64,000 bases of DNA from Deinococcales bacterium (GCA_043778225.1 JAYWGM010000051.1:24861-88860), one strand, 5' to 3'; positions 1 to 64,000 are shown, counted from the stretch's first letter. Numbers and translations: made by a program. Notes: generated by a model not told the origin, from the letters alone.

Positions 1-60
1 AAAGACTTGGGCTTGATAAATCAGGGTCTCGAGTTTTACGGGGTTGGTATAGACATTCAT
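1..60 (-). CDS. 5' end of a gene running off the window edge (MNVYTNPVKLETLIYQAQVF...)
   Basis: ATG at 60 on the minus strand preceded by AAGGAG; frame is open to the window edge. Confidence 0.6.
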   Translation of the reverse strand, partial: MNVYTNPVKLETLIYQAQVF

Positions 61-190
61 GGAATTCACTCCTTTGGACTTCTCTTCTTCACTAAAGTGT
101 AAAAGAAACTTGGCTAAATGTCAAGTGTGCTTGTCAAAAAGTCAAAGAAGCACGACACAAAATTTGGGGAAGCACAGGACTTGCGGGGGC

Positions 191-219
191 TTGTCAGAAC
201 CCCTAACTTTATGTATACT
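191..219 (+). promoter_or_regulatory. sigma70-type promoter of the tRNA gene
   Basis: TTGTCA-17 nt-TATACT upstream of the tRNA. Confidence 0.6.
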
Positions 220-252
220 CCTCGCCGCCAGAGATGGTTTATCCCAAAGGTT

Positions 253-329
253 CGGGGACTAGCGCAGTCTGGTAGCGCATTTGGTTTGGGACCAAAGGGT
301 CGGGGGTTCAAATCCCTCGTCCCCGACCA
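253..329 (+). tRNA. tRNA-Pro (anticodon TGG)
   Basis: 77 nt cloverleaf: acceptor CGGGGAC/GTCCCCG, anticodon stem TTTGG/CCAAA with loop TT-TGG-GA, GGTTCAAATCC T-arm, encoded CCA end. Confidence 0.97.
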
Positions 330-330
330 C

Positions 331-369
331 AAAAAAGAAACCTGCTTAACGGCAGGTTTTTTTCTTTTG
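331..369 (+). terminator. intrinsic terminator after the tRNA
   Basis: AAACCTGC-ttaacg-GCAGGTTT hairpin followed by a T-run. Confidence 0.8.
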
Positions 370-416
370 AATTCTTGACTACCGCCGATTTTTTAGCTCA
401 AGTGTTAGAGTAGAGC

Positions 417-1562
417 GTGAATCCTTCACTGACCCCCTTAGTTACTGTTGCCACCTATGCAGTCATGATTGCCATTGGGGCAATGAATGCCAGTTACGGC
501 TCGGTGCTACCGTTTCTCGAGCGCCAATTTGTGGTCACCAGTGCCGAAATCGGTTTTTTAAGCACCGCCCAAACGATTGGTGGGGTGCTTGGAAATTTAA
601 GCACTGCCTTTCTCGAGAAGCGTTTTACAGCTGGGCAACAAATGTTTGGTGGTGGAGCAGGGTTTGCTTTTGGGGCAGTCTTTTTTGCCTTGGCAATGAC
701 TTTTCAACTTGGTTTTTTAGTGGCATTGCTGGCGCTTTTTATCATGGGTTTAGGGTTGGGTTTGTTCCAAGTTAATTTTGCCAATATCTTCTCGAGGGGC
801 TTTGGAGCGCGTTCGGGTGCGGTGATGTCGGTCATGAGTACCGCTTTTGCAGTGGGTAGTGTGGCTGGTCCACTATTGGCGGTACGACTTGGTGGGGCAT
901 ATGCGTGGTTGCCAGTGGCTTTTGGAGTCCTGACTTTGGGTTGTGCGCTCCTGATGCGACCAGCCAAAAATTCTGAACCCGCCACTGCCGAGGCTCGAGG
1001 CGGAATTAACCTCGACAGTTGGTTATTTGCGATTATGATTGCCTTGTACGTTGTGGCAGAACAAGGTGCGGGTTTCTGGGGTGTGACCCATTTGGTTTCG
1101 ATTGGCTGGAAACCCGAAGCCGCCGCCGTGGTTTTCTCGAGCTTTTGGCTGATGCTGTTGGTTGGGCGTTTGGTTGGTGCGGCAGTCGCCACAAAATTCT
1201 CGAGCGAACAAGTGGTTATTTTTGGTTTGCTTGGTTCTAGCTTGGCTTTTTTGCTCACCAATGTGGCTGGTTTGGCTGCTCCAGCCTATTTGTTAGCTGG
1301 AATTTTATTTGCGCCAGTTTTTCCTTTGGGCTTAACGTGGTTAGCCAAAGGCAATCCCTCGAGTCTGGCAACCACCCAGTACCTAATTGCTGGCAGTGTC
1401 GGGGCAGCGATTGGAACGCCGCTTGTGGGCGGCTTAAAAACAATCTTTGGTGATGTTGCCATTCCGATTGCCTTAACCGTGGCTTGTGGGTTGTCTTTGG
1501 CGGTGGCGCTGGTCTTGCGGGTACGGCAAACTCGTGGGCTATCCAGTACACTTAAAATATGA
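417..1562 (+). CDS. MFS transporter
   Basis: 381 aa with about 12 hydrophobic segments in MFS arrangement. Confidence 0.85.
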   Translation: MNPSLTPLVTVATYAVMIAIGAMNASYGSVLPFLERQFVVTSAEIGFLSTAQTIGGVLGNLSTAFLEKRFTAGQQMFGGGAGFAFGAVFFALAMTFQLGFLVALLALFIMGLGLGLFQVNFANIFSRGFGARSGAVMSVMSTAFAVGSVAGPLLAVRLGGAYAWLPVAFGVLTLGCALLMRPAKNSEPATAEARGGINLDSWLFAIMIALYVVAEQGAGFWGVTHLVSIGWKPEAAAVVFSSFWLMLLVGRLVGAAVATKFSSEQVVIFGLLGSSLAFLLTNVAGLAAPAYLLAGILFAPVFPLGLTWLAKGNPSSLATTQYLIAGSVGAAIGTPLVGGLKTIFGDVAIPIALTVACGLSLAVALVLRVRQTRGLSSTLKI

Positions 1563-2308
1563 AGCGATTTATTGAGTTTTCTGAAATTCCCGAGCAAGCA
1601 GTGCTGCTCGATGCTCGAGCCAAAGCCGATTACTTGGCTGGGCATATGCCAATGGCACGCCATGCCGAATTTCTCGAGAAATTTATGATTCGTAACCCCG
1701 AACAACTCGAATTTTTTAACCTGACGCTCGAGGCTTGGATTCGAGGCTTGGGCTTGACTGGCACGGAGCAAATCGTGCTGTACGATGCCGGGCGCGACAC
1801 CCGAGCCTCAAGAGCAGCATGGGCGCTCGAGTATGCTGGATTTAGCGTACAAGTGCTGCGCCAAGGGATAGAAGGCAAGCTCGAGACGATAATCCCCAAA
1901 TTAAAGCCCAGTCAATTTGTGCTTTTGCCCAACCGAGCTTTGTTGGCAACTGCCGAGGATGTGCTAAGCGGCAAGGCACTGGTCTTGGATGCTCGAGACA
2001 ACCTCGAGTTTGCAGGGCAAAAAATCCCGCCGGGGGCAACTCGAGGTGGTCATATTCCCAAGGCACTACATCTGGATTGGCAAAAACTGGCTGACCAAGA
2101 TGGGATTTTGGCTGGCAACCAAATTGATGCGGTTCTCGAGTCAATCCCCAAGAACCGCGAAATTATTGTTCATTGTCAATCTGGGGCGCGTTCGAGTGTG
2201 CTTTTTTTGGCGCTTCGTGAACGTGGGTATACGGTCAGTAATTATCTTGGCAGCATGAACGAATGGCTCAACGACCCAAGTTTACCGGTCGATCATTTTG
2301 GCGCATAG
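1559..2308 (+). CDS. tandem-domain rhodanese / sulfurtransferase
   Basis: LLDAR..DYLAGH, GHIPKA and catalytic HCQSGARS motifs. Confidence 0.9.
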   Translation: MKRFIEFSEIPEQAVLLDARAKADYLAGHMPMARHAEFLEKFMIRNPEQLEFFNLTLEAWIRGLGLTGTEQIVLYDAGRDTRASRAAWALEYAGFSVQVLRQGIEGKLETIIPKLKPSQFVLLPNRALLATAEDVLSGKALVLDARDNLEFAGQKIPPGATRGGHIPKALHLDWQKLADQDGILAGNQIDAVLESIPKNREIIVHCQSGARSSVLFLALRERGYTVSNYLGSMNEWLNDPSLPVDHFGA

Positions 2309-7900: not shown

Positions 7901-7944
7901 GTGCCTTGGAAAAGTTCAAATTCAGGGTTACTCGAGGAGAAATT

Positions 7945-10900
7945 ATGAAAAACGTTGTTCCTAAAGTTATGACCAGCATAGCAATTCTGGTGTTTGGATT
8001 ATTAGCCTGTACCAATCCACCAGCACCACCACCAGCCAATCAAATTCCAGTGGCGGCGTTTACTGCGGCTGCGCCAACGGTAAAAGCAGGGGATGCGCTG
8101 CTGTTCACCAGTTCTTCGAGTGACCCTGATGGCGATGTTCTGACCCAATCTTGGGACTTTGGCGATGATACTCGCGGCGGCGGACCCAGTATCGCTCATG
8201 TTTTTCCAAGTGCAGGGGATTTCACGGTCAAACTTCTGGTTGCTGATGGCAAAGGCGGCTCGAGTAGTACCACACAAAGTATTACGGTAACGGCAGGAGC
8301 GCCTTTGGGGGCAGATGTGACCGTGATTGGCACGATTACCGATTCAGCAGGCGTGGCATTGGCTGGGGTCAGTGTCAAACGTGGCTCGAGTATACTTGGA
8401 ACAACCGATGCCAACGGTAGTGCCACGATAGCCATTCCCACTGGTGCTTCGCAGACGTTACTGCTCTCAAAAGATGGTTATGTGGATCAAGTTCTGGCAC
8501 TCGAGTTTCCAGTCAGCAACGACCCAAGTAACGGCACTTTTAATGCGGTGCTGCTAACCGCAGGCACAGTTCAAACCGTCAATGCCAGCACAGGCGGAAT
8601 GCTTAAAGCTGAGGATAACGCCATGCTGCAATTACCTGCGGCTGGTCTCGAGACGGCAAACGGCGCACCTGTCACGGGTGATGTTCAGGTCAGTATCACA
8701 CCGCTTGACATCAGCAACCCAGACCGAGCGCGGGCGTTCCCCGGGCGGCTCGAGGCGGTCACAACCACGGGCGAGGATGTAGGCATTGTTTCACTGGGTA
8801 TGACCGATTTTACACTGACCCAGAATGGTCAGGAAGTGAACTTGAAACCCGGCTCGAGTGCCAAAGTGCATATTCCGCTCTATGCCAATGTCAATTTGGA
8901 TGGCAGCCCAATTAACCTTGGTGACACCATGCCACTTTGGTCAATGAGCGAAAAAACAGGCGAATGGGTGCAAGAAGGTCTGGGCGTAGTGGTGGACACG
9001 GGCAATGGTTCTCGAGCGCTCGAGGCAACCGTGACGCATTTTTCGATTTGGAACGGTGATAAAGTGTTTGACGATGCCCGACCCAAGCCCAAGTGCAAAA
9101 CTCCAAATGGAGTTGTGGTCACCAATCGGTTCACCAAATGCTACTGGTACTTAAAAATCAAAGACCTTGAGGAAAACACTGAATTTGGCAATAGCCAGAT
9201 TCGACCCCAAAATGTTCCCATTTCTCGCCAGCCTGCTTGGGCTGAAGCTGGTGTCACCGACTTTGACGTTGCACCGCCGCAGCCGTTTATTGTTCCTGCC
9301 AACGAAAAAATGGACGTTTCTGTATGCGCTGAGGTGGATGGCAAAAGGTATTGCGCGAGTACCGTTAGAACCTTTGCCAGCAACAGCAACGATGACCTCG
9401 ACATCGTGATGCTGCCGATAGAAACTCAACCCGTCACATTGCCTTTTGATGCCTCCAAGAGCATTTCAGATGGCATCATCAGACGGTATGAACTTGTCAC
9501 CACCAGCGCCCCCAACCTGTTGTCGGTGCGGCTTGAGCCGACTGGTAATGCAAATGTCAAGGTTACGATTTATAACACAGTGAACACAGCAATCGCTGTC
9601 AAATCTCAGACGGGCAACACCCCACTTGACCTGACGGCACTTTTGCCAACAGCAGGCAAATACTTTGTTGATGTCACTCCAAGCGATACTTCGCAAGGCA
9701 ATGTCCGAACCATCATTCAAACTGTTGGTGTCGAAGCGGTCACTTTGCCGTTTGATGCGGTGCGGAATGTCGCCAAAACCCAGCGTCTCGAGTTTAACGC
9801 GCTCAGTTCTGAAATCGTGACCATCAACTTAGATCGCACCCAAGGCTCTACCTTGAGTGCCACGGCGCGGTTATTTGATGGCAACGGCACGGCACTGACC
9901 ACTGGCACAGTCAATACCACAGCGCTCACACTCGAGAAACCACTGTTGATTTCAGGCAAGCACATCCTCGAGATTGCACCAACTGGTGGCTCGAGTGGCG
10001 ATGCACGGGTCAGAATCAGTACCCGACCCAATACAGGTGCAACTTGGAAACCGTTTTATCAAGTGGCGGATACGGACATCTTGCAAAGCACCCTGACCAA
10101 GCCGTGTTTTGCTTCGGCAAGCAATGCCACAGGGCGTACTTTGATGGCATGGATGGAAATTAAGCTAAACCAAAGTACCTTGAGGGTCAGTCAGTACGAC
10201 CCTGTTGCCAATTCATTCAATGCAGCCACCACGCTGGCAACCAACAATAGCAGTCCATACCGTTGTCAAATCGCTGTCTCGAGCAATGGCGATGCGATGA
10301 TTGTTTGGTGGCTCAGGGCTGGCACAAACACCAAAGATATTTTCTGGGCGCGGCGGGCAGTTGGCTCAAGTGCATGGTCTACGCCTGCGATTTTGGCAAC
10401 TGCCAGTACAAACTATTTGTTGAACCGCCCTTCGGAATTACAATTGGATGCCAATGGCAATGCCAGTCTGGTCTGGCTCGAGCAGCACGCGCAAGGCACA
10501 AGCTCGCAACTCAAGACCTCGAGGTACAACCCAGCCACGGACACTTGGACGACATCGGTGTTGGTTGCACCTGTGCCTGAGACAAAACTGAGCATTCCAA
10601 GTCTTTCCAGCGATACCGCAGGCAACCAGATGGTGCTGTACCGAACCGCCAATCAAGGGGCGAACTCGGCGTACCCAAGTGACGGGGTGTACGTGCAGAA
10701 GTACGATTTAGCAAGCAGCACTTGGCTTGCCCCAACGTTGGTCAAAGCCACCCCAGCACCATTCGAGAATCAAGTCACCAGCGACCAAATCACACCGATG
10801 GTCTTACGGATTGGCGCAGGTGGTCATGCCATTGCAATTTGGCAAGAACAGATTCAAGGTCTCGACAAATATGGCAGTGCCAAAATGAACCTAAGCACAG

Positions 10901-11349
10901 GTGTTTGGACAACCTTACCGAACATCTCTGCAAATGGTGTTCCAGCCCTCGGCATCAGTGCAGCAGGTGTTGCTACCACAACGGTTTACAGCAACCGAAG
11001 CAGTTTGGCTGGTCAAGGGCAATACCAAGCCAGAACGATTGGCGCATTAGACGCGGCTTGGAGTGCGCCAACGGTGCTACTGCAAAACGATGGCGGTGGT
11101 AACGACATCAAACTTGCAATGAACCCAAGCGGTGATGCCGCTACCGTATTTTGGACTGGACTTGGCTTTCAATTCGCCTCGCGTTCCTCGAGCGGCAACA
11201 CATGGGCAGCCACCAGCAAAATCAGCGAATCAAACAGTGCTTCAACCGTCAGCCTAGACAACAACGGGCAAGCCTTGATGGTACGCACAGTCAAGCAAAC
11301 AGCACCTGATGTGTCCATCCTCGAGTATCAACGTATCAGTGTTCGCTGA
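7945..11349 (+). CDS. large PKD-domain surface lipoprotein (paralogue 1)
   Basis: GAGGAG RBS; lipobox LLAC; PKD domain (WDFGD); carboxypeptidase-regulatory-like domain; THFSIWN motif; repeated beta-rich domains. Confidence 0.85.
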   Translation: MKNVVPKVMTSIAILVFGLLACTNPPAPPPANQIPVAAFTAAAPTVKAGDALLFTSSSSDPDGDVLTQSWDFGDDTRGGGPSIAHVFPSAGDFTVKLLVADGKGGSSSTTQSITVTAGAPLGADVTVIGTITDSAGVALAGVSVKRGSSILGTTDANGSATIAIPTGASQTLLLSKDGYVDQVLALEFPVSNDPSNGTFNAVLLTAGTVQTVNASTGGMLKAEDNAMLQLPAAGLETANGAPVTGDVQVSITPLDISNPDRARAFPGRLEAVTTTGEDVGIVSLGMTDFTLTQNGQEVNLKPGSSAKVHIPLYANVNLDGSPINLGDTMPLWSMSEKTGEWVQEGLGVVVDTGNGSRALEATVTHFSIWNGDKVFDDARPKPKCKTPNGVVVTNRFTKCYWYLKIKDLEENTEFGNSQIRPQNVPISRQPAWAEAGVTDFDVAPPQPFIVPANEKMDVSVCAEVDGKRYCASTVRTFASNSNDDLDIVMLPIETQPVTLPFDASKSISDGIIRRYELVTTSAPNLLSVRLEPTGNANVKVTIYNTVNTAIAVKSQTGNTPLDLTALLPTAGKYFVDVTPSDTSQGNVRTIIQTVGVEAVTLPFDAVRNVAKTQRLEFNALSSEIVTINLDRTQGSTLSATARLFDGNGTALTTGTVNTTALTLEKPLLISGKHILEIAPTGGSSGDARVRISTRPNTGATWKPFYQVADTDILQSTLTKPCFASASNATGRTLMAWMEIKLNQSTLRVSQYDPVANSFNAATTLATNNSSPYRCQIAVSSNGDAMIVWWLRAGTNTKDIFWARRAVGSSAWSTPAILATASTNYLLNRPSELQLDANGNASLVWLEQHAQGTSSQLKTSRYNPATDTWTTSVLVAPVPETKLSIPSLSSDTAGNQMVLYRTANQGANSAYPSDGVYVQKYDLASSTWLAPTLVKATPAPFENQVTSDQITPMVLRIGAGGHAIAIWQEQIQGLDKYGSAKMNLSTGVWTTLPNISANGVPALGISAAGVATTTVYSNRSSLAGQGQYQARTIGALDAAWSAPTVLLQNDGGGNDIKLAMNPSGDAATVFWTGLGFQFASRSSSGNTWAATSKISESNSASTVSLDNNGQALMVRTVKQTAPDVSILEYQRISVR

Positions 11350-14500: not shown

Positions 14501-15021
14501 AGTACCTCGTGAACAAAGGGGAATTTGGCAGCCCGCTCAATTTCAGTGGCGCAGAGATAAAAGGCGGCTTAAAAGTTGGCAATCACACGATCACGATTCA
14601 CAACAAACGGATTGACAATAACAACCCAATCAACACACCAACCAATTACAACGTTTCGCTCGTCACGCTCGAGAATCCAACCGATTTAGCCATTGGTGCG
14701 CCCGCCGCGAATGGTCTGATAGATGTGGCTGGTGAACGCGATTACTACCGCTTTAACGCCACTGTTGGACAGGCATTCACGATTACCGCCACCAGTCCAG
14801 CCTTCACTGGCACAATCCGCATTCACAAACTCAGTGCCACCAAGGATTTTACGACCTTCGAGACCTTCAATATTCTTGGTGGTAATCCAGTCAAGGCACT
14901 CGGTACGCATACCTTCACCATTCCCAATGTGAGTTACGGCGGAACTGGCACGTACATCATCGAAATAGATGCGACTGCCGCTCAAACAGGCGCATACAGC
15001 GTGGCGCTGACCTCGCCGTAA
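11521..15021 (+). CDS. large PKD-domain surface lipoprotein (paralogue 2) with PPC-like C-terminal domains
   Basis: N-terminal about 370 aa closely paralogous to 7945-11349; THFSLWN motif; DIYSFNATQGQ and DYYRFNATVGQ PPC-like repeats. Confidence 0.85.
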   Translation: MMKNVVPKVVTATAILVFGLLACTNPPPPPVANKNPVAAFTSAAPTIKAGDALLFTSSSSDPDGDVLTQSWDFGDSTRGGGSSIAHVYPSAGSFTVKLTVGDGKGGSSSTTQSITVTAGEPLGAPLEVSGEITDTSGLPLAGVAVKLGSSTLGTSDANGKVMVSIPTGPSQTLMLFKEGYTDQVAALEFPIGSRSSNAFFKMSMLTQAPSQPLSATTGGAITAKDNAKLEIPANGLETQNGTPVTGNVQVSITPLDVSNLAVLAAMPGRLEGMQTDGSSAGIVSLGMTDFSLSQNGQDLNLKPGSSAKVRIPLYADTDESGKVLVLGDTIPLWSMSETTGEWVQEGIGTVVDAGNGIKALEATVTHFSLWNADHIYDENLQNPRPNPPLPPLPVVKPKCKIPPEIEAQLDTDAKKAVFCLFLSEAVDIFGTDGPNPNGALRPQATTPRLPAWSARATLPLAGGTDFGLVPPNRKIRYTACVFVIGKELCGSEVKTLQRGTTTAFDILMLPIQEETVTVPLDITRSLTSAKRRFTFNVTIPTQLFFSLEPSAGSTLNATVDLLQGNDKVVSGNIASTTLTFNAEVVAGKYTLEVAPLAGATGNLRIQIQPIVNESITLPFDSTRGVTKTQRFEFDSATSPNGISVLLERGAGSGFTGTTSLFNPTGTVMASGAIGATALSFDVQLSATGKHILEVKPAIGSSGDVRIKIVRKDIANTIAFDTDLDVPQVANKVDIYSFNATQGQQVSLGFAWSQGAGFSSDYPGLRKLNAANGIAPNNGIYTLQTAGVYQITIKNFANATGTYRLRLNTVQNLTTLNTLDPLTEITTSLNLGEVRRYVFNPPLTLGEVVALRLETASINAPTSAYFRGFPQSGLVGNNPVSIEAGKAPQSKLSEFTFIPISTDTYWLYLDGNGSQNFPVIGQIGGQFTLGIFRPSAQALALDSSASGSINPNTLLTHRVNVSVAGSYLLRAVIAAQNTVTADIWNSDAPRIVGNQYLVNKGEFGSPLNFSGAEIKGGLKVGNHTITIHNKRIDNNNPINTPTNYNVSLVTLENPTDLAIGAPAANGLIDVAGERDYYRFNATVGQAFTITATSPAFTGTIRIHKLSATKDFTTFETFNILGGNPVKALGTHTFTIPNVSYGGTGTYIIEIDATAAQTGAYSVALTSP

Positions 15022-15032
15022 GCAATTTACTC

Positions 15033-15061
15033 GAGGCTCGAGGATTGAAAACTCGAGCCTC
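15033..15061. repeat. CTCGAG-based REP-like hairpin
   Basis: GAGGCTCGAG-9 nt-CTCGAGCCTC perfect inverted repeat. Confidence 0.6.
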
Positions 15062-16955: not shown

Positions 16956-17696
16956 ATGACCATCAGCGCAGTTGTCCTCGGTGGAGGACACCCCAACGAC
17001 CCACTGGCACAACAAGCCAATGTTTCTGTTAAGGGCTTAATCCCGATTGCAGGGCAAGTCATGGCGGCGTATGTCCTCAAAGCCCTGCGGGCGGGTGGTG
17101 TGACCAAAATTATTTATGTCGGCGCAGTCAGTGCCGAACTCGAGCCACTGATTGACCTTCACATTGCCGCCAAAGGCACGATGCTTGAGAATCTACAAGC
17201 TGGACTCGAGCCGCTTCAACTCGAGCCTCGGGTGCTGATTTCGACCGCCGATATTCCCTTGTTAAGCCAAGCTGCGGTCAAAGATATTCTGGCTCGAGAC
17301 CCCAAAATTGGTTTGGTCTATCCTGTGGTCTCTAAAATAGCTGCCGAACGCGATTTTGCTGGCGGCAAGCGCACCTATGCTCGCTTGCTTGAGGGAACAT
17401 TTACGGGCGGTAATCTTTTTTTACTCGAGCCAAGTTTGATTGCGGCTTTTTTGCCGCGCCTCGAATACATTCTTAAAAACCGTAAAAACGTGATTGCCTT
17501 GGCTGGAATGTTTGGGCTTGGCGCACTTTTTAAGCTGGCTATTGGGCGTTTAAGTATTACCGAACTCGAGCAGACCGTCTCGAGAATTTTAGGTGTTCCC
17601 GCCAAGGCACTGATTACCGATTTTGCCGAAATTGGCTTTGATGTTGATAAGCCCGCCGATTTAGCGATTGTTCTCGAGCATCTGGGGAGGCGCTAA
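16956..17696 (+). CDS. MobA-like NTP transferase
   Basis: AVVLGGG ... KGLIPIAG, TADIPLL and C-terminal FDVDKPADL motifs. Confidence 0.85.
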   Translation: MTISAVVLGGGHPNDPLAQQANVSVKGLIPIAGQVMAAYVLKALRAGGVTKIIYVGAVSAELEPLIDLHIAAKGTMLENLQAGLEPLQLEPRVLISTADIPLLSQAAVKDILARDPKIGLVYPVVSKIAAERDFAGGKRTYARLLEGTFTGGNLFLLEPSLIAAFLPRLEYILKNRKNVIALAGMFGLGALFKLAIGRLSITELEQTVSRILGVPAKALITDFAEIGFDVDKPADLAIVLEHLGRR

Positions 17697-36030: not shown

Positions 36031-38421
36031 TCACTCTGCATCGTCGGTAGGGATAACCGCCGCCACAATTTCGGTTTCGTCGGTCAGTACGGCTTTGACC
36101 TCGAGCCGACCAACTTCACGCACCCGATGTGCAAACAGCTTATTCAACAAACCATAATTCGGATGTCCCGCAAGGCTCGAGACCACCTTTTTTGGCGCGA
36201 TAGGCTCAAGGTCGCCAAAATCCATCTCGAGCGCTGCAAGTGGTGGCGCATCGGGTAGCGTTTCTAAATCAAAAGTCTCGAGCGACCCAAGCCCGTCAGG
36301 TGCATCTTTAGGGTCAAGAAGCGACCCAAGCGACCCAAGCCCGTGAGGTGCATCTTTAGGGTCAAGAAGCGACCCAAGCCCGTGAGGTGCATCTTTAAGG
36401 TCAAGAAGCGACCCAAGCCCGTGAGGTGCATCTTTAAGGTCAAGAATGTCTGTGGTCAAGACTGCTACTGACTCCAACTCAAAAGACGACCCATACTCTG
36501 TGGGCAATGGCGCATCATCATCAAAGGGAGGTATATCTTCATAGACCGAAGGCTCGTCAACTGGCTCGAGAAACACCATCGGTTCTGGCTCGAGAGGCGC
36601 TACTTTTTCTGGCTCGAGAGCTGCCACAAATTCGGCTGGGCTAAATAAGCCAGCTTTGGCTTGGCTACTACCAAGTGCATCAAAAGCCAAATCTGAAGCG
36701 ACTTGAGACGCAGACTGACTGATTGGCTCGAGCAGTAGAAGCTCGAGAAGTAATTTTGCTGGTGGAGCTTGGATTTGACTTGACGCGGGTTCTGGCTGTA
36801 CAGGCAATGGTAAAGCCTCGAGAACCGCCGCCACAACTCGCGCCGCAGGTTGCGAGGTCGTTGGGTTATGAAGGGCTCTTGAATTTTTTTTTGTGCCGTC
36901 TGGCATCACCAATTCAAGTGCCACACCATGCCCAAGCACTTGCTGGGTTAAGGCTGCTAATTCCTCGAGCTTAGAAGCCACTTGCTCGGCGTGCCATTTG
37001 TTCTTGGGGTTGCTGTACTCAATCACCAAAGTATCGGCGCTCAGATGCCCAACCGCTTCTTTGAGAATCGCCCTAAGCCGCAAATCGGCTTTGAGAATCA
37101 CGTCTGCCCAGCCTTTAGAGCCTAAAGGCGCAACTGCCTTTGGCGCTTCTGGGGCGGCTCGAGGCGGAGCGGATGGTGCGGTTTCAAACGGCGGCTCATC
37201 CGATTCCAAAACAGGCACAACCGGACGGCGCGGCGCTCGAGCCGTCGGGTCAAATTCTGGCACAGGGCGCTGCCCACTGGCTTTTAAGCCCTCGTCTACC
37301 ACTTTTTGGAATGCCCCACGGACTTGCTTCTCGAGGTTTGCCACCCGAGATTCAAGGGCGGGCGAAACCGTGCCTGTTTCTGTTGCCGTTTCTGGCGCAA
37401 GCATGGCTTTGGTAAACGCCATTTCTAAAGCCATTAAATCCGAAGCCCGAGCAAAACGCCCGTCTTCTTCGTCAAGCGCCCGAATCAGGCGCAGCAAATG
37501 CACTTCGCCAAAAGTTTCGGCAACATTTTTAGACAAGCCAAGCTGGGCGTGTAACTGGTCACGCAAGGCAATTTTGACCCGTTCGGTGATGGTGCGTGGC
37601 GCAAAACCATCCGAATAAAAGGCAGTTAAATTCTGCATTAGGCGCTTGGTGTCGCCTCGAGCCAAGGACATCGCTAAGGCTTCTACACGGTCTTGAGGCG
37701 GTAAACCCAGCGCTCCTTCGACCATCTCGAGCGTTAAATTAGGTTCGCCCGAAGCCAGCAGCCGCTCGAGTAAACTTTCGCCGTCGCGCATTGCCCCATC
37801 GGCGGCTCGAGCAATTAAGTTTAAGGCTTGCGGCGAAGGATTGACCCCTTCCGCCATAGCGGTTTTTAAGAGTTTGCCTGCAATTTCATCCGCCGATAAA
37901 CGCCGAAAACGGTAATGCTGGCAACGACTAAGAATCGTGGCGGGTAAGCGCTCTGGTTCGGTCGTGGCAAGCACAAAAACCGCATGGCTCGGTGGTTCTT
38001 CAAGGGTTTTTAAGAGTGCATTAAAAGCACTTTTACTCATCATGTGGGCTTCATCGAGGATATAGACTTTTTTATCGCCACGCATCGGTTGTAGGGCTAC
38101 TTTTTCGCGCAAGTCTCGGACATCATCAACGCTGTTGTTGCTGGCGGCATCAATCTCGAGAACATCGGGATGTCTGCCAGCAATCACGCTTTTGCACGAG
38201 TCGCACGTGCCGCATGGTTTGACCCCCAGCGTTTCGCAATTGACGGTCATGGCAATCAGCCGCGCCGTGGTGGTTTTGCCTACGCCGCGTGGACCGCTAA
38301 ACAGATAGGCATGACCAATTCGCCCGCGTTCCAAGGCTGGTCGCAGCACATCTTTAACGTGTTCTTGCCCAACGACTTCATCCCAGTGGATTGGTCTCGA
38401 GCGTTGATAAATCGCGGTCAT
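36031..38421 (-). CDS. dnaX: DNA polymerase III subunit tau/gamma
   Basis: VVGQEHV, HAYLFSGPRGVGKTT, Cys4 Zn site, EIDAASN, DEAHM, SRC motif; A9 run at 36884-36892. Confidence 0.97.
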   Translation of the reverse strand: MTAIYQRSRPIHWDEVVGQEHVKDVLRPALERGRIGHAYLFSGPRGVGKTTTARLIAMTVNCETLGVKPCGTCDSCKSVIAGRHPDVLEIDAASNNSVDDVRDLREKVALQPMRGDKKVYILDEAHMMSKSAFNALLKTLEEPPSHAVFVLATTEPERLPATILSRCQHYRFRRLSADEIAGKLLKTAMAEGVNPSPQALNLIARAADGAMRDGESLLERLLASGEPNLTLEMVEGALGLPPQDRVEALAMSLARGDTKRLMQNLTAFYSDGFAPRTITERVKIALRDQLHAQLGLSKNVAETFGEVHLLRLIRALDEEDGRFARASDLMALEMAFTKAMLAPETATETGTVSPALESRVANLEKQVRGAFQKVVDEGLKASGQRPVPEFDPTARAPRRPVVPVLESDEPPFETAPSAPPRAAPEAPKAVAPLGSKGWADVILKADLRLRAILKEAVGHLSADTLVIEYSNPKNKWHAEQVASKLEELAALTQQVLGHGVALELVMPDGTKKNSRALHNPTTSQPAARVVAAVLEALPLPVQPEPASSQIQAPPAKLLLELLLLEPISQSASQVASDLAFDALGSSQAKAGLFSPAEFVAALEPEKVAPLEPEPMVFLEPVDEPSVYEDIPPFDDDAPLPTEYGSSFELESVAVLTTDILDLKDAPHGLGSLLDLKDAPHGLGSLLDPKDAPHGLGSLGSLLDPKDAPDGLGSLETFDLETLPDAPPLAALEMDFGDLEPIAPKKVVSSLAGHPNYGLLNKLFAHRVREVGRLEVKAVLTDETEIVAAVIPTDDAE
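36281..36445. repeat. 4 x 39-bp tandem repeat inside dnaX (LD[L/P]KDAP[H/D]GLGSL)
   Basis: unit AGCGACCCAAGCCCGT(C/G)AGGTGCATCTTTA(G/A)GGTCAAGA; solo copy at 57084-57121. Confidence 0.92.
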
Positions 38422-38484
38422 GGTTTCATCCTATCTTTTCCTCATGAAACAGGTAATTTGTCTTTCTGGGTACTTGATTTTGGC

Positions 38485-38577
38485 TTGACAAATTCAAGTT
38501 TGGGTGTATCATCTGGCTAGAGAGGGCTGTGCATATAAAAGCCGCCCACCCGCCACTTATTAAGGTGGCGGTTTTTT
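38485..38577 (+). ncRNA. putative short transcript of about 60 nt with promoter and terminator, antisense to the 3' end of the RelA/SpoT gene
   Basis: TTGACA-16 nt-TATCAT, then CCGCCAC-loop-GTGGCGG-T6; no ORF in between. Confidence 0.35.
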
Positions 38578-39594
38578 ATTTTCTAACCACCGATTGAGTG
38601 CAGTAATTTGATACTCCTGTAAAAGTGGTCTATAGATGCTTTGATTCGCAAGGTAAAAGATGTGCCGTAAAAAAGTAAAAGCATTAAAATTCAAGTTGTT
38701 TTCTGATTGGAATTGCAGTACCATCGCAAAGTTTGTTTCATAGAACACAATCAAATCAGCAAGACTAAGCTCAGTATTTGTGGTTCTTAACTCATTGAAA
38801 AATCTTTCGATGGCTTTGATTTTAAAGTGTACATCGGGGAATTTATTCCATAAAAATCCTGTGAGAGCAACAGTATCTAAACTTAGGGTAGATGATTTTT
38901 GATTGATAATATCATCGAATATTATTTTCTCGGCTGCTTGCAAAAAAACAGTATTTTCGTTTTTTATGGTCATAAATTCTCTATCTGCCAGTTCAAAGAG
39001 TGCAGATAGAACATTGATTTTTCGTTTTAGTACGAGGGGGATTTCTTTTTTGTACTTTATTTTATGGTCTACAACGCTCCAAGAGTCTTGAATGATTGTT
39101 CTGATCTGAATTTCAAATTTTATGTCTGGGAATTGCCTATAGTAAGACCTTCCCAAGTAATCTGGACTCAATTTCATATCCATGTGCAAAGCCTGATACC
39201 CAAAAGTATTCTCGGTGGCTTGGATTTGTTTGATTTTATCGGTCTCTTCAAGCATTTGAAATTCGCCAATAAGAGCTTCTTTTATCGAATCTATTTGGTT
39301 TATATAAATACAGACAATTCTAAAACCGACCAAATCTGAAATAGAATCTTGGATTGTATACACTTGGCTATTTTCTTCATATAAATTTTTGTATTTTCGG
39401 ATAAATTTTTCAAGGCACTCATTTCTATCTTTGATTCGTCCTGAAACCATAAATCCATCGGATTCAGGTAAGTCTTTCACCAAGTCTTGCAGTGCAGTCA
39501 CCATTCTCTCCCTGAAACCCAATAATTTTGTTAAATTGGCATCATAAAATTCTATAAAAATTTGTTTCTCGAGTTCAAAATTCAAAGAAGCCAT
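38560..39594 (-). CDS. RelA/SpoT-domain small alarmone synthetase-like protein with a C-terminal extension
   Basis: GRIKD..EK, DLVGFRIV, GYQALH, EIQIRT...DHKIKYK motifs; markedly AT-rich. Confidence 0.88.
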   Translation of the reverse strand: MASLNFELEKQIFIEFYDANLTKLLGFRERMVTALQDLVKDLPESDGFMVSGRIKDRNECLEKFIRKYKNLYEENSQVYTIQDSISDLVGFRIVCIYINQIDSIKEALIGEFQMLEETDKIKQIQATENTFGYQALHMDMKLSPDYLGRSYYRQFPDIKFEIQIRTIIQDSWSVVDHKIKYKKEIPLVLKRKINVLSALFELADREFMTIKNENTVFLQAAEKIIFDDIINQKSSTLSLDTVALTGFLWNKFPDVHFKIKAIERFFNELRTTNTELSLADLIVFYETNFAMVLQFQSENNLNFNAFTFLRHIFYLANQSIYRPLLQEYQITALNRWLENKKPPP

Positions 39595-44929: not shown

Positions 44930-44930
44930 T

Positions 44931-45685: not shown

Positions 45686-46750
45686 ATGTCAAATGCCACC
45701 ATCACCCTTGCCGATGTCGCCCGCCTTGCTGGGGTCTCTAAAATTACGGTTTCAAAAACCTTAAATAACACCGGTCGTATCTCGGAAGGGACTCGAGAAC
45801 GGGTCTTAAAAGCCGTGGCAGATTTGGGTTATGTGGTCAACAGTGCCGCCCGCAGTTTGCGCGGTGGTAAAACGGGGGTCTTGGGGATGGTTGTTCCCGA
45901 GTTGGTCAGTCCATATTTTGCCGAAGTGGCTCGAGCCGCCGCCGATGAAGCCAGTCAGTGTGGTTTTGACCTTGGTGTTTTTACAACTTCGCGTGATGTG
46001 ACTCGAGAACGCGCCCGCATTGGCACATTGCTCGGTGGTTTAGCCGATGGTTTATTGGTGGTTGTGCCTAGTGGCAACGAGAAGTTTTTGCTATCGCTCG
46101 AACGCAGCCGCGCTCCAGTGGTCTTGATTAACCATTTTGGGGCGCAGACCCATTTACCGATGGTTCGAGCCGACAGCTATTTGGGCGCAAAAGCTGCAAT
46201 CGAACATTTACTTTCTTTAGGGCATCAACGGATTGGCTTTGTGACGGGCGCGGTTGGCTCGAGCCAAGCAGTCGAGCGTTTACGCAGTTACCGCGAGGTT
46301 TTAGCGGCTCGAGGTTTACTGGACGAAAGCCTGATTCGTCCGGGTAATTTTACCCAGCGTGGCGGTTTTGATGCGGCTCGAGAATTATTGGCATTGGCGC
46401 TACCACCAACCGCAATTTTTGCCGCCAGCGATGTGACTGCTTTTGGCGTGATTGATGCCATCAAAGATAAAGGCTTGCGTGTTCCCGATGATATTTCAGT
46501 GGTTGGCTTTGACGATATTCCGGCTGCCAGTCAGGTGCATCCAGCTTTGACCACGGTGCGCCATCCTGTCCAAGCCATGGCACAAGCCGCTATGCAGCTG
46601 ATGCTCGATGCTTTTGCCAATAAGCCTGTGCGTGACACCGTAATCGAATTTCCCAGCGAATTGGTTATTCGTGAGTCGACCAAAGCCCTCGAGATTCGTG
46701 ACTCGACCAAAGCCCTCGAGATTCGTGAATCGACCAAAGCTATTTTGTAA
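45686..46750 (+). CDS. LacI-family transcriptional regulator
   Basis: [38 protein letters not shown]. Confidence 0.95.
46667..46740 (+). repeat. about 3 x 27-bp in-frame repeat at the LacI C-terminus (IR[E/D]STKALE)
   Basis: unit ATTCGTGAxTCGACCAAAGCCCTCGAG. Confidence 0.9.
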
Positions 46751-47794: not shown

Positions 47795-47877
47795 CCACGC
47801 TACAGGCAAGGTACTGACCACGCTACAGGCAATGTACTGACCACGCTACAGGCAAGGTACTGACCACGCTACAGGCA
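47788..47877 (+). repeat. about 4 x 23-bp tandem repeat starting at the permease stop
   Basis: unit GTACTGACCACGCTACAGGCAA(G/T). Confidence 0.9.
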
Positions 47878-51929: not shown

Positions 51930-52563
51930 AATTTTAGCCCAAATAAAAGCTGCTCAAGTGGTCGGGGTCTTGCGGGCGGATTCGCTCGAGTCGGCTGTCC
52001 AAGCCACCTTAGCCGCCGTGGCTGGTGGTCTACGAATAATTGAACTGACCTTCACGACCCCCAATGTGACCCAAGCCTTGGAGGTGCTGTCAAGCCAATT
52101 GCCAGCCGATGTTTTACTCGGGGCTGGGACAGTCTTAAACCTCGAGCAAGCCAAAGCCGCCCTCAAAGCTGGAGCGCACTTTTTGGTCAGCCCATATTTA
52201 TCTAAAGAAGTCCTAGCGTTTTCACTCGAGCAACAGGTGTTGTACCTACCGGGGGTGGTGACCCCAACCGAGATGATGCAAGCCCACCAACTTGGAGCAA
52301 CTGCCCTAAAATTATTTCCTGCTGAATCGAGCGGCGGTGTAGCCTACCTTAAAGACATCCTTGCTCCCCTGCCGCACTTGCAAATCATGGTCACGGGTGG
52401 GATTCAACCGAGCCAAACCCAAGCCTATCTCGAGGCTGGGGCGGTGGCAGTTGGCTTAGGCAGTAATTTTTTCCCAAAAGCCGCCATGGCGACGCAAGAC
52501 TGGCAAGCGGTTCAAAGCGCTACCCAAGCTGCACTTGTGCAGTGTGGAGTTCATCATGCCTGA
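51907..52563 (+). CDS. eda: KDPG/KHG aldolase (start uncertain)
   Basis: IELTFTTP, GAGTVL, FLVSP, PG..TPTE, KLFPA, TGGI motifs. Confidence 0.9.
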   Translation: MVVGLPAKILAQIKAAQVVGVLRADSLESAVQATLAAVAGGLRIIELTFTTPNVTQALEVLSSQLPADVLLGAGTVLNLEQAKAALKAGAHFLVSPYLSKEVLAFSLEQQVLYLPGVVTPTEMMQAHQLGATALKLFPAESSGGVAYLKDILAPLPHLQIMVTGGIQPSQTQAYLEAGAVAVGLGSNFFPKAAMATQDWQAVQSATQAALVQCGVHHA

Positions 52564-52638
52564 AATCATTGAGGTGTGTGATGCCTGAAATCATTGAGGT
52601 GTGTGATGCCTGAAGTCATTGAGGTGTGTGATGCCTGA
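52556..52638 (+). repeat. 3 x 25-bp tandem repeat across the eda/kdgK junction
   Basis: unit ATGCCTGAA(A/G)TCATTGAGGTGTGTG; each unit carries a start, a stop and an SD. Confidence 0.9.
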
Positions 52639-55068: not shown

Positions 55069-55671
55069 ATGACTGCACTCGAGGTGCTGACCCAAAGTTT
55101 TATTCTCGGACTTGGTATTGCCATGCCCGTCGGACCAATAGGCGTATTGGTGATTCGTCGTAGCCTGACCGAAGGACGCAAATACGGTATCGCTTCGGGA
55201 CTCGGTGCAGCCACTGCCGACGGGTTGTACGGCTTAATTGCTACACTGGGTTTGGGCTTAATTGCCAGTTTACTGACAGGAATCCAATTTTATACGCGCT
55301 TAATTGGTGGGGTATTTTTGCTCTATCTTGCTTGGCAAATTTATAACAGTCAACCGCCCGAAAAAGCCACCCAAGCCAAAAGTGCCTCGAGTTTAATTGG
55401 TGCGTATGTTAGTACCTTGCTGCTTACTTTTTCTAATCCAGCCACGATTCTCTATTTCTTTGGGGTGGTCTCGAGCCTCAAAATAGTTGGGCATGGCTGG
55501 GCAGTGGTGCTTGGCTTCTTTCTTGGCAGTGCGCTCTGGTGGATTGCCCTCAGCGGTGTTGCCAGCAGCCTAGGCTCGAGCATGGACAACAGGGTATTGC
55601 GGCTGGTCAATGTGGTCTCGAGCTTGGTGATTGTAGCCTTTGCGGTTTATGCGTTTATTGGATTGTTCTAA
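55069..55671 (+). CDS. LysE-family exporter
   Basis: GIAMPVGP, GLGAATAD, LLTFSNP motifs. Confidence 0.9.
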   Translation: MTALEVLTQSFILGLGIAMPVGPIGVLVIRRSLTEGRKYGIASGLGAATADGLYGLIATLGLGLIASLLTGIQFYTRLIGGVFLLYLAWQIYNSQPPEKATQAKSASSLIGAYVSTLLLTFSNPATILYFFGVVSSLKIVGHGWAVVLGFFLGSALWWIALSGVASSLGSSMDNRVLRLVNVVSSLVIVAFAVYAFIGLF

Positions 55672-55816
55672 GCTCGAGTTCAGCCAGCCTCTGAAAGCTC
55701 GAGTTCAGCCAGCCTCTGAAAGCTCGAGTTCAGTTAGCCTCTGAAAGCTCGAGTTCAGTTAGCCTCTGAAAGCTCGAGTTCAGTTAGCCTCTGAAAGCTC
55801 GAGTTCAGCCAGCCTC
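55670..55816 (+). repeat. about 6 x 25-bp tandem repeat, one CTCGAG per unit, no spacers
   Basis: unit AAGCTCGAGTTCAG(CC/TT)AGCCTCTGA; variant order CC,CC,TT,TT,TT,CC. Confidence 0.93.
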
Positions 55817-60924: not shown

Positions 60925-60935
60925 GATTGGTTTCC

Positions 60936-61295: not shown

Positions 61296-61318
61296 ATATT
61301 CTCCTTAAAACCAAAGGA

Positions 61319-62195: not shown

Positions 62196-62289
62196 CAGCA
62201 CAGCACAGCACAGCACAGCACAGCACAGCACAGCACAGCACAGCACAGCACAGCACAGCACAGCACAGCACAGCACAGCACAGCACAGC
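62196..62289 (+). repeat. (CAGCA)18 simple sequence repeat
   Basis: 18 perfect units at 62196-62285 plus CAGC. Confidence 0.97.
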
Positions 62290-62320
62290 GCAAATCTTCT
62301 GGGCAACACGGGCGTGAATC

Positions 62321-62566
62321 ATGTCGGATAAATCACCAGCCTTGACCACCCGAGAACTCGAGACCTTGCACTATCTGGCTCAAGGCTACAGCGACCTCGA
62401 GATTGCCCAAGCCCTTTGCAATCGGCATGTAACAGTCAAGAATTGCCTTGCCACGATTCGACTAAAACTTGGCGCATTTAGCCCAAAGCCCTTAAATAAG
62501 CGCACCAACCTTGCCGAATTTTATAGACTGCACCTTGCAGATAAATTTGGCTCGAGTTTGGAGTAA
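62321..62566 (+). CDS. solo LuxR-type HTH protein, possibly a remnant
   Basis: LTTRELETLHYLAQGYSDLEIA..TVKN.L..I..KLG. Confidence 0.75.
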   Translation: MSDKSPALTTRELETLHYLAQGYSDLEIAQALCNRHVTVKNCLATIRLKLGAFSPKPLNKRTNLAEFYRLHLADKFGSSLE

Positions 62567-62714
62567 TCTTATGACTTGACAGCAATTTTTACGCAGCTAA
62601 AAAACAACTAAAATTAGACAAAAAAGCAACCAAATGCTAGACTGAACACGAGTGAAAATGCTTACATTTTGTATAAGCATTGAACTGAATTCAAAAGTCA
62701 AAGTGAGCTAAATC

Positions 62715-63101
62715 ATGCCAACGATGCTTATCCCCGAACCCCTCATCGCACATATCATTCATGAAGTACAAGAACCAAACACAGGGCGTTTTGATGGCTT
62801 AAAACTAGCCACCGCTTTGGGTTTAACCGTACCTGAAATGGCACGATACTTAATGGTTTCTGATAGTGCCTTGCGTAAAACACCAAATTCGAGCAATTAC
62901 CAAAAGAAATTCATGCAACTCTCGATTATCGCCCAGCGCCTCAAAGGATTGCTTGATAATTCACTCGAGTACACCCGAATTTGGCTTCGCGCTCCGCACC
63001 CAGACCTTGACTACCTCGCACCGATGGATTGTATTTTAGAAGGTGACATCGCCTCTGTTACTGATTTGCTCGAGATGTTCGAGCGAGGACAAACAGCATG
63101 A
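62715..63101 (+). CDS. Xre/MbcA/ParS-type antitoxin
   Basis: N-terminal HTH; C-terminal WLRAPHPDL...PMD motif; ATGA overlap with the RES gene. Confidence 0.85.
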   Translation: MPTMLIPEPLIAHIIHEVQEPNTGRFDGLKLATALGLTVPEMARYLMVSDSALRKTPNSSNYQKKFMQLSIIAQRLKGLLDNSLEYTRIWLRAPHPDLDYLAPMDCILEGDIASVTDLLEMFERGQTA

Positions 63102-63691
63102 ATGCCCAAAAACAATTGGTCAAAGAATTACACAAATTACTGCAAAAAACTGTAGCTCGAGATTATTGTTCGTTTCGCAGTACCAATTTACGATATGTCA
63201 ACAATCCAATCAGTGCCTTGGGAAGTGCCATTGTTGGTGGACGATTCAATCCTAAGAAACTCGAGGCGCTGTACACAAGTTTAGAAATCGAAACGATGAT
63301 TGCCGAAATGCAACACTATGCACACACAGACCCAAGATTAGCGGGACGCTTTCGACCCTCGAGTATTCTAACCCTTGAAAGCACTAACATTCGTGCTTTG
63401 GACTTAACAAACGCTGTCATTCAAACGTTGCTTGGTACAAACCCACAAGAACTCAGTGGCAGCTTTATCCGAATGCAAAACCGTGGTTTTGAAGCACCAA
63501 CACAATTACTGGGACGAATCAACATTGAACAGTGTTTTTTTGATGCCATTATTGCCGAAAGCGCTCGGACAGATAATGGTAAGAATCTGGTTATATTTCC
63601 TGATGTTGCCAGCCAACATGGTTGCACCATCACTTTGTTTGACCCCGAAAATATACTACCAACAATTCAAATTCTACCGACACCAAAATAA
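63098..63691 (+). CDS. RES-domain toxin (MbcT/ParT-like)
   Basis: FR, GGRFNP, ALYTS......AE, ESAR, NLVIF motifs. Confidence 0.88.
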   Translation: MNAQKQLVKELHKLLQKTVARDYCSFRSTNLRYVNNPISALGSAIVGGRFNPKKLEALYTSLEIETMIAEMQHYAHTDPRLAGRFRPSSILTLESTNIRALDLTNAVIQTLLGTNPQELSGSFIRMQNRGFEAPTQLLGRINIEQCFFDAIIAESARTDNGKNLVIFPDVASQHGCTITLFDPENILPTIQILPTPK

Positions 63692-63780
63692 AGTAGGAAA
63701 TGCAGAATTTACCGTGAATACTTTGCATCAAAATCAGGCTCGAGTAAAAAATAAGTTGTGCGGCACAGATTTAACAAAAA

Positions 63781-63828
63781 GTAACATGACCAAAGTAACG
63801 TGACTTTCGTCATATGACCTAAGTAACT
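63781..63828. promoter_or_regulatory. 14-bp-period array of GT(A/C)A..TGAC units, candidate operator
   Basis: GTAACATGACCAAA GTAACGTGACTTTC GTCATATGACCTAA GTAACT. Confidence 0.4.
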
Positions 63829-63900
63829 CAGAGATTTCTAATTCGTGTGTAAAGCTACTGCATTCGGTTACTCAATGCCGAAAAACCAAATTTGGGGGTA

Positions 63901-64000
63901 TAATACCAACTTTAGGTAGATAATACGGAATGTCAAGATTAGGCACACCTCTGACCGCGCACCACACAACTGAAGAACTCGAGAAGCATTACAAGCAGTG
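63901..64000 (+). mobile_element. left end of a probable IS630-family element with the transposase start (ATG 63930), truncated by the window edge
   Basis: TA then ATACCAA-type terminus; ORF MSRLGTPLTAHHTTEELEKHYKQ resembles the IS630 HTH N-terminus (H.s.EELE..Y). Confidence 0.5.

Follow-up and report, generated by a model that had tools for sequence, protein, structure and literature searches.

The window examined here, a stretch of 64,000 nucleotides from a Deinococcales bacterium (GCA_043778225.1; positions 24861-88860 of contig C51 of the assembly, here called G000), carries the palindromic hexamer CTCGAG in an excess that is found throughout the uncultured family to which the genome belongs. 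The excess is real, extends over exactly 6 bp, is independent of the reading frame and is no peptide effect. CTCGAG appears to be a family-wide 'self word', acted upon by a directional force addressed to the DNA word and not to codons or peptides, and can be regarded, by analogy, as an equivalent, outside the cyanobacterial phylum, of the HIP1 palindrome and of DNA uptake sequences. As to its origin, we tentatively propose a drive linked to DNA exchange, by which a word marking self DNA would be spread as uptake sequences are; this is put forward as a possible rather than a probable account, and the link of CTCGAG to uptake or recombination is one that we infer.

The source assembly amounts to 4,029,277 bases in 107 contigs, is 89.4% complete and 0.04% contaminated, and lacks a 16S gene. 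Within the window 423 copies of CTCGAG were counted, to be compared with 8.62 +/- 2.90 in 100 dinucleotide-preserving shuffles (maximum 15; none of the 100 reached 423). Their average spacing of 151 bp agrees with the first-pass annotation, made from the sequence alone, which had described a recurrence every 100-200 bp. By codon phase (0/1/2) they are distributed as 220, 58 and 91, with 54 copies in non-coding DNA; the reversed control, GAGCTC, is absent from the window. Genome-wide, 24,877 copies (6.17/kb, about one every 160 bases) make CTCGAG the commonest hexamer, the ones ranking next being overlaps of CTCGAG itself, and 3.7% of all bases fall inside a copy. Observed/expected ratios are 26.7x, 47.5x and 15.1x under Markov models of order 0, 1 and 2, all reaching the genome-wide over-representation of at least about 15x that is typical of highly iterated palindromes (HIPs), and 3.6x and 1.16x at orders 3 and 4. 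The high-order expectations are circular, because they are dominated by the sub-words of CTCGAG: of 36,442 TCGA tetramers, 24,877 sit within it. CGATCG is found at only 0.2x.

Genes were called crudely, by accepting open reading frames (ORFs) of at least 100 amino acids, longest first; the resulting 3,500 ORFs make up 88.9% of the genome. In this partition 13,043, 4,450 and 4,615 sites fall in phases 0, 1 and 2, and 2,769 outside genes; phase 0, which reads Leu-Glu, accounts for 59% of the coding sites. The density is the same in coding (6.17/kb) and non-coding DNA (6.15-6.18/kb), in line with the reported occurrence in intergenic DNA, and after correction for composition (non-coding DNA is 45% GC) the enrichment is 31.7x in non-coding vs 26.2x in coding DNA. 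The coding sequences contain 22,156 copies, 9.3x the mean of 2,390 left by within-gene shuffling of synonymous codons (5 replicates) and 22x the 994 left by codon permutation. By phase, 13,056, 4,468 and 4,632 sites were observed, vs 1,667, 391 and 332 in the synonymous shuffles (7.8x, 11.4x and 14x). The earlier claims that the word occurs in all three frames and is not due to dipeptides were thus confirmed, and neither of the outcomes named in the first-pass annotation as contradicting them, loss of the excess under codon or dipeptide control and confinement to one frame, was observed.

Because the bases flanking CTCGAG hold at most 0.033 bit of information in G000, the word is exactly 6 bp long and does not belong to any longer repeat. 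Derivation from a longer repeat or a mobile element was discarded on this ground, the few multi-copy segments having ordinary density, while an artefact of codons, dipeptides or Markov expectations was excluded by the shuffling, by the non-coding density and by the Markov controls.

The closest relatives of the window's DnaX are encoded by uncultured Deinococcales metagenome-assembled genomes (MAGs; 86-48% identity) and next by Thermaceae, which confirms the assignment of the word to a non-cyanobacterium. All 20 DnaX loci of the uncultured group contain 4.3-10.2 CTCGAG/kb, at a GC content of 47-63%; the DnaX locus of a Deinococcaceae MAG contains 0.37/kb, and those of high-GC relatives show an excess of 3-11x, which derives from a preference for CTC and GAG codons. 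At the level of whole genomes, the 19 members of the uncultured family (5 genera) all lie between 4.3 and 6.8 CTCGAG/kb, and 22 genomes of four sister families between 0.03 and 2.9/kb; the GAGCTC control occurs 0-568 times per family genome. Two sister-family genomes were used as outgroups: in G021 the sites are divided by phase as 380/0/14 (of 394), its moderate excess being a plain CTC-GAG codon effect, and in G019 as 129/13/48. A full-text literature search, the coverage of which leaves out subscription journals, returned no report of CTCGAG hyper-abundance, and the accessible portions of the HIP papers examined mention neither CTCGAG nor relatives of Deinococcus.

Retention at orthologous positions was evaluated by mapping G000 proteins, by tblastn, onto a 400-kb portion of each of four genomes and keeping the best non-overlapping high-scoring segment pairs; these samples replaced the DnaX loci alone, which aligned too little sequence. 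G006 belongs to the same genus as G000, G013, a closed genome, to another genus of the family, and G019 and G021 are the outgroups. Shared sites are given below for phases 0, 1 and 2, together with the numbers expected if sites were independent and the fraction kept at positions with identical amino acids.

G006: 220 pairs, median identity 76%; shared 432/822, 131/279 and 167/317 (expected 8.3, 1.1 and 1.2); kept 72-80%, vs 31% for other hexamers.
G013: 214 pairs, median identity 64%; shared 181/815, 37/258 and 53/260 (expected 5.4, 0.5 and 0.6); kept 25-49%, vs 17-18% for other hexamers.
G019: 152 pairs, median identity 46%; shared 31/555, 3/177 and 3/170 (expected 1.5, 0.0 and 0.2); kept 5-26%, vs 15% for other hexamers.
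G021: 193 pairs, median identity 49%; shared 100/802, 0/259 and 2/228 (expected 4.6, 0.0 and 0.0); kept 0-46%, vs 13% for other hexamers.

Within the family (G006 and G013) sites are therefore retained far beyond the conservation of codons, a property of HIPs for which a comparison of orthologues had been suggested in the earlier annotation. The same annotation had proposed that the word reshapes the proteome, and this is seen as well. Leu-Glu occurs 18,870 times in G000 vs 8,124 expected (2.32x), with 13,056 of these dipeptides encoded by CTCGAG; for comparison, Glu-Leu is at 0.97x and Ser-Ser at 1.58x. In the same aligned regions the observed/expected ratio of Leu-Glu is 2.2-2.4 in G000, 2.29 in G006 and 2.07 in G013, vs 1.19 in G019 and 1.32 in G021, corresponding to a usage about 35-70% above the outgroups; the approximate doubling of word-encoded peptides that is typical of uptake sequences is found here for Leu-Glu. 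Leu-Glu dipeptides written as CTCGAG are conserved more than the average dipeptide within the family (0.69 vs 0.57 and 0.52 vs 0.44) and not against the outgroups (0.21 vs 0.27 and 0.27 vs 0.29), and for this reason they look derived and subsequently retained. The density of CTCGAG is nearly independent of protein conservation, poorly conserved genes being only slightly favoured: over quartiles of identity to G021 it is 6.66, 7.36, 6.30 and 6.07/kb (Spearman -0.09 to -0.21).

These data leave next to no chance that pressures on codons or dipeptides, or towards the avoidance of restriction sites, produce the excess as a side effect while the word itself is under no force. Such pressures would agree with the prevalence of phase 0, near-complete in G021, with the codon-derived excess at the DnaX loci of high-GC relatives and with the strong avoidance of most other palindromes in G000. 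They are refuted by the excess over synonymous shuffles and codon permutation, by the 11-14x found in phases 1 and 2, by the equal density of coding and non-coding DNA and by the gap between Leu-Glu and Glu-Leu; moreover, the avoided palindromes vary by genome, whereas the CTCGAG excess is shared. As to these other 6-bp palindromes, 34 of 64 fall below 0.1x in G000, where the 4 Mb contain a single copy each of GGGCCC, GACGTC and AGGCCT, and 21, 13, 17 and 2 of 64 do so in the samples of G006, G013, G019 and G021, respectively. AAGCTT is an example of the variation, being at 0.07x in G000 and at about 1x in G006 and G013; GAGCTC, GGATCC, GGCGCC and CCGCGG form a core set whose avoidance extends over the family and G019.

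Regions devoid of the word were also collected. G000 contains 37 gaps of at least 1.2 kb without CTCGAG, the largest of which are 31-39% GC and extend up to 5.6 kb. The cargo of the annotated gaps includes a surface-polysaccharide cluster (epimerase, GT2, EpsG, GT1, flippase, DegT, GNAT), a NACHT/Mrr STAND protein, a KAP NTPase and proteins of unknown family, and restriction-modification genes lie in several of them; patchily distributed defence and methyltransferase genes carry 3-7.6 CTCGAG/kb. Judging from composition and gene content, the motif-free stretches look like imported DNA which has yet to gain the word, and the low-GC gaps thereby display the scarcity in recently acquired genes known for uptake sequences. 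Motif density was read only qualitatively as a sign of import, never as a residence clock.

The DNA of invaders was approached through the spacers of clustered regularly interspaced short palindromic repeats (CRISPR). The G000 array, on contig C80, has 44 repeats and 43 spacers (1,442 nt, GC 49.5%). Its spacers contain 10 CTCGAG, or 8.15/kb of possible positions, whereas the density of the host would give 7.6 sites and the composition of the spacers 0.29 (Poisson P about 9e-13); none of them matches elsewhere in G000. Cas1 is encoded in 13 of the 19 family genomes, and 102 spacers from arrays adjacent to it in 10 other genomes of the family, collected by a crude array parser which dropped some spacers, contain 15 CTCGAG (4.82/kb) vs 0.86 expected (P about 4e-14). 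In 9 of 13 arrays of the other family genomes (L453-L459, L461, L464) the word is also contained within the CRISPR repeat; these repeats are 37 nt long (one 35 nt) and end in ATTGAAAC or ACTGAAAC. HIP1 is reportedly located inside a CRISPR repeat of Synechocystis. When sought across the family, the G000 repeat turned up in no genome other than G000, except for a single variant copy in G002.

A search of the family genomes with the DNA of the G000 array identified one credible protospacer, besides two matches in G016 at 71-74% identity. A word-bearing spacer matches, at 94% over 34 nt, contig C690 (L472, 6,422 bp) of the congener G001, which is possibly a provirus, or else a virus binned together with the genome. 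It encodes VP16-like and VP17-type major capsid proteins, a packaging ATPase, a virion structural protein and an M23 peptidase; the VP16/VP17 pair presumably corresponds to the capsid proteins of Thermus phage P23-77, of double jelly-roll type. A RelE-like toxin gene is also present on C690, and G001 is a Deinococcales MAG from a cold habitat. A scan of a viral collection with a three-site pattern returned, among the matches listed, mainly high-GC contigs in which GAGCTC is common too. A restriction target would be avoided by host and invaders; CTCGAG is enriched in the host, in the spacers and in the virus contig, and the word-rich spacers and contig imply that it is not shunned by invaders as such a target. 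The force, or the benefit of the word, is one that reaches the mobile DNA of the family.

In the exchange-linked drive tentatively proposed above, the force would create sites and keep them at orthologous positions in all DNA of the family gene pool, that is genes in all frames, intergenic spacers, defence genes, CRISPR repeats and viruses, with fresh imports still lacking the word. Cells of a competence-equipped lineage would preferentially take up, process or recombine CTCGAG-bearing DNA, by means of a putative reader protein, and word-bearing alleles would spread by recombination, as in the molecular drive that is known for DNA uptake sequences and has lately been put forward for HIP1 as well. 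ComEC is encoded in 18 of the 19 family genomes, the exception being a 79%-complete MAG, and DprA in all five examined. In G000 a gene for a D12 adenine methyltransferase (389 aa) is located about 1.5 kb downstream of dprA (C89:21497-24825), a pairing absent in G006 and G013. Like the uptake signal sequences (USS) of Pasteurellaceae and the DNA uptake sequences (DUS) of Neisseriaceae, CTCGAG is present in thousands of copies, is family-wide, forms terminator-like stem pairs, is accompanied by doubled peptides, is missing from imports and occurs beside competence genes. For uptake sequences, the doubling of encoded peptides, the lack of the word in imported genes and a weak bias to poorly conserved genes are described in the accessible text of Findlay and Redfield 2009 (PMC2817400).

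Several points weigh against this proposal. Known uptake sequences are asymmetric words of 9-12 bp found at about 1/kb, whereas CTCGAG is a 6-bp palindrome found at 6/kb. ComEC is encoded in 22 of 22 sister-family genomes without the trait, and is therefore non-discriminating; no reader protein was identified, and competence is predicted for the uncultured family from its genes. The effect of HIP1 in cyanobacteria is methylation-dependent, and here no family-wide methyltransferase was found. Lastly, the 145 spacers pooled from 11 family genomes contain 25 sites (5.8/kb) vs 1.15 expected from composition, and C690 contains 18 (2.8/kb, 13.6x; 7/4/3 by phase plus 4 non-coding) and no GAGCTC. A drive based on uptake only fails to predict word-rich lytic viruses, for which an intracellular force or mimicry fits better.

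Mimicry is part of an explanation which we rate as unlikely, in which CTCGAG would be read by a family-specific DNA-binding protein or nuclease, serving nucleoid organisation or a self/non-self check by which CTCGAG-poor DNA would be attacked or stay unprotected, and viruses and plasmids would come under selection to mimic the word density of the host. The host-like density of spacers and the enrichment of the virus contig in all phases agree with it, and it requires no methyltransferase. Mimicry need not be selected, because viruses generally drift towards the oligonucleotide usage of their hosts. Counts of CTCGAG along G000 are also more even than those of eight equally abundant tetramers: the Fano factor is 0.82, 0.88 and 1.01 in windows of 250 bp, 500 bp and 1 kb, vs 1.09-1.29, 1.15-1.46 and 1.29-1.75, while the gaps are near-exponential (mean 161, median 117, coefficient of variation 1.00). 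This short-range evenness holds, however, in coding regions only. Pairs less than about 20 bp apart are scarce in coding DNA alone, and for this reason the interpretation of evenness as a protein footprint was withdrawn; in non-coding DNA there is an excess of pairs spaced 10-30 bp, as would be expected of stems built from two copies. Further points against a reader of this kind are that no candidate protein was found and that the chromosome retains islands of up to 5.6 kb without the motif. At a spacing of 7 bp, CTCGAG-N-CTCGAG occurs in 123 cases genome-wide, above neighbouring spacings and with any central base.

A recombination nuclease was considered among the candidate readers. Chi sequences resemble CTCGAG in being over-represented, short, self-marking words, which would protect linear DNA, even viral. 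Chi words are oriented and only few-fold enriched, whereas CTCGAG is palindromic and enriched 27x. The nuclease domain predicted for a Chi/AddAB reader (PDDEXK_1 of AddAB/RecB type, PF12705) had no match in the two family genomes examined, G000 and closed G013, or in G020, and 3 and 2 matches in G019 and G021, respectively; such a reader of CTCGAG was accordingly rejected. The two sister-family genomes G019 and G021 contain adjacent ORFs of the size of AddA and AddB. Even less likely than the reader described above is a self-recognition code based on the density of CTCGAG, with a reader that is neither a methyltransferase nor AddAB/RecBCD, in which rich DNA would be accepted, through uptake, recombination or sparing, poor DNA disfavoured, and viruses and mobile elements forced to copy the host. 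If true, it would represent a new, methylation-independent discrimination of self from non-self by oligonucleotide density, and would give HIP1-type palindromes a general function.

The first-pass annotation had linked the word to methyltransferase specificities and had suggested a search for an orphan enzyme. A census was performed by Pfam profile searches for five classes in the family genomes, most of which are incomplete MAGs; it replaces a regular-expression prefilter for methyltransferase motifs, which gave 59 candidates. G000 is rich in such genes, with 5 full C5, 4-6 N4/N6, 8 N6/Eco57I-type (three of them HsdM) and 3 D12 enzymes. No gene of the five classes is common to the 19 genomes of the family. 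C5 enzymes occur in 16 of the 18 other genomes and were not found in G010 (91% complete) and G002; N4/N6 enzymes occur in 15 of 18 and were not found in closed G013, in G014 and in G002. D12 enzymes are present in all five family genomes examined, at a mutual identity of just 24-55%. The 7 methyltransferase-family genes of G013 have no orthologue-level match in G000 (best identity 24-33%); of its two native-looking D12 genes, one is matched by orthologues in 7 of 19 genomes (76-81% identity) and the other in 8 of 19 (59-71%), and these types, one of them 285 aa long, were not found in G000 or in three 94%-complete congeners.

Single candidates fared no better. Two gamma-class methyltransferases, on contigs C92 (501 aa, TaqI-like catalytic domain) and C65 (650 aa, HTH, i.e. 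helix-turn-helix, plus TaqI_C), were rejected on finding them in 1 and 2, respectively, of the 18 other family genomes; the C92 unit adjoins a motif-free ORF and looks inserted. The large native-looking proteins with methyltransferase domains on C1 and C8 are defence enzymes, of Type ISP/IIG and MmeI-like. The XhoI family (PF04555) had no match in G000, its control matching no reference genome either, and Vsr had none in G000, with a control profile that matched 3 of 14 genomes. Single-base differences at sites between G000 and G006 amount to 79 C>T at the outer cytosine, 78 C>T at the inner one and 36 T>C; since they follow synonymous opportunity, even at both cytosines, they reveal no methyl-cytosine hotspot.

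With no family-wide enzyme, no Vsr and no decay signature at a single cytosine, the suggested link was not substantiated, and no orphan enzyme follows the trait across the family. Methylation as the organising cause is only weakened by these results, since the specificity of an enzyme is unreadable from its sequence and most of the genomes are MAGs. Methylation of CTCGAG by one or several, possibly non-orthologous, enzymes, with dense sites selected through methyl-dependent strand choice in repair, replication or regulation, is nevertheless an alternative to be weighed, and one we hold to be somewhat unlikely. The abundance of methyltransferases in G000, the D12 enzymes of all five genomes examined and the partial orthology of the two from G013 are in its favour. 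So are the tie of every HIP to a cognate methyltransferase, as given in the available part of Elhai 2015 (PMC4390886), and methylated CTCGAG in some hot-spring community genomes, lying outside the present family, mentioned in the portion available of 10.64898/2026.06.24.734251. It is opposed by the patchiness of all candidates, including the gaps in C5 and N4/N6 enzymes, by the presence of several methyltransferase genes in motif-free, low-GC islets and by the even split of differences between outer and inner cytosine.

A mutational origin appears very unlikely. A context-specific, biased mismatch repair or gene conversion, similar to very-short-patch repair, would turn near-sites into CTCGAG, and would act alike on coding and non-coding DNA, CRISPR repeats, defence genes and virus DNA, leaving imports without the word; the higher enrichment in non-coding than in coding DNA is what is expected of a per-site force opposed by protein constraint. 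The one-base neighbours of CTCGAG in G000 are, however, ordinary (0.13-1.42x), with no depleted class of precursors (CTTGAG is at 1.40x and CTCAAG at 1.42x), and the spectrum of differences is not position-specific. The Dcm/Vsr system of E. coli raises one short word genome-wide by very-short-patch repair; CTCGAG differs in the lack of a Vsr match in G000 and of a universal C5 partner, in its far larger enrichment and in the undepleted precursors. We know of no repair enzyme producing 6-bp palindromes unless it is partnered by a methyltransferase.

The comparison with HIP1 (GCGATCGC), made in the first-pass annotation, stands in part. Both are short GC-rich palindromes (HIPs are 15-300x over-represented), found in all frames and, for CTCGAG at equal density, in non-coding DNA, conserved beyond codons and scarce in imported islands; the part that did not stand is the cognate methyltransferase, which defines HIPs and of which no family-wide example was found for CTCGAG. 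HIP1 further differs in belonging to cyanobacteria, in being another word, of 8 bp vs 6 bp, and in a frequency of roughly 1/kb, according to the available part of Elhai 2015 (PMC4390886), vs about 6/kb. As far as the accessible text of Xu, Lawrence and Durand 2018 (PMC5861425) goes, HIP1 is found in all frames, is conserved beyond codons and shows a periodicity of 10-90 kb along the chromosome. It raises transformation efficiency in PCC 7002, with proposed roles in uptake/processing and Chi-like ones (Kamoku and Nielsen preprint, portion available), and co-varies with the competence machinery (PMC13756078, portion available).

For some 30 years HIP1 has lacked an explanation and has passed for a trait peculiar to cyanobacteria and linked to orphan methyltransferases; CTCGAG now provides a second, independent case, by which general features can be told from lineage-specific ones. 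A DNA-level force, retention, absence from imports, presence in CRISPR and invaders and the company of competence genes would be general, and the pairing with a methyltransferase looks lineage-specific, given that CTCGAG is apparently without a conserved enzyme. In practice, CTCGAG flags foreign DNA and ties viruses to hosts in metagenomes of the family, and whoever clones or expresses genes of the family meets a XhoI site about every 160 bp.

The features of the window that carry or lack the word are the following.

1559..2308, plus strand: rhodanese-like ORF with nine CTCGAG.
15030..15042, strand not assigned: CTCGAG-N-CTCGAG doublet; a second one is at 33017-33029.
17565..17584, plus strand: terminator-like hairpin whose stem is made of two CTCGAG (CTCGAG, 8 nt, CTCGAG, then a T-run).
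38396..39568: longest run without CTCGAG in the window, 1,172 bp, GC 35%, covering the RelA/SpoT-domain ORF described below.
46667..46740: 27-bp tandem repeat, 2.7 copies, with the unit ending in CTCGAG.
55670..55816: 25-bp tandem repeat, 5.9 copies, with CTCGAG within the unit.

The count of nine copies in 1559-2308, given in the earlier annotation, is exact (starts at 1614, 1673, 1727, 1826, 1880, 1992, 2003, 2040 and 2135), and the occurrences it noted in hairpins and in tandem repeats correspond to the stem at 17565-17584 and to 2 of the 11 tandem arrays of the window. The genes of the window are ordinary chromosomal ones (dnaX, trpD, kduD, iolB, two-component systems, sugar ABC permeases). 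A motif-free ORF beside dnaX (38560-39594, minus strand, 35% GC) encodes a RelA/SpoT domain (59.6 bits) and weakly matches PDC-S33, a candidate defence family; from these features it looks like an imported gene of small alarmone-synthetase type which has not yet acquired the word.

Four ORFs (7906-11349, 11521-15021, 21193-24075 and 40067-44953; 960-1,628 aa) have no NCBIfam family at E <= 1e-10. Five of the tandem arrays (19866-19953, 28724-28789, 47788-47877, 52556-52638 and 55670-55816) have periods of 23-25 bp and 2.9-5.9 copies at 95-98% identity; the arrays do not share related units, and most are located at gene boundaries. A 39/48-bp tandem repeat of about 3 copies (36281-36446) lies within the dnaX ORF (36031-38421, minus strand), so that the C-terminal half of this clamp-loader subunit contains a repeated peptide, and a perfect (CAGCA) microsatellite of 18.8 copies is found at 62196-62289.

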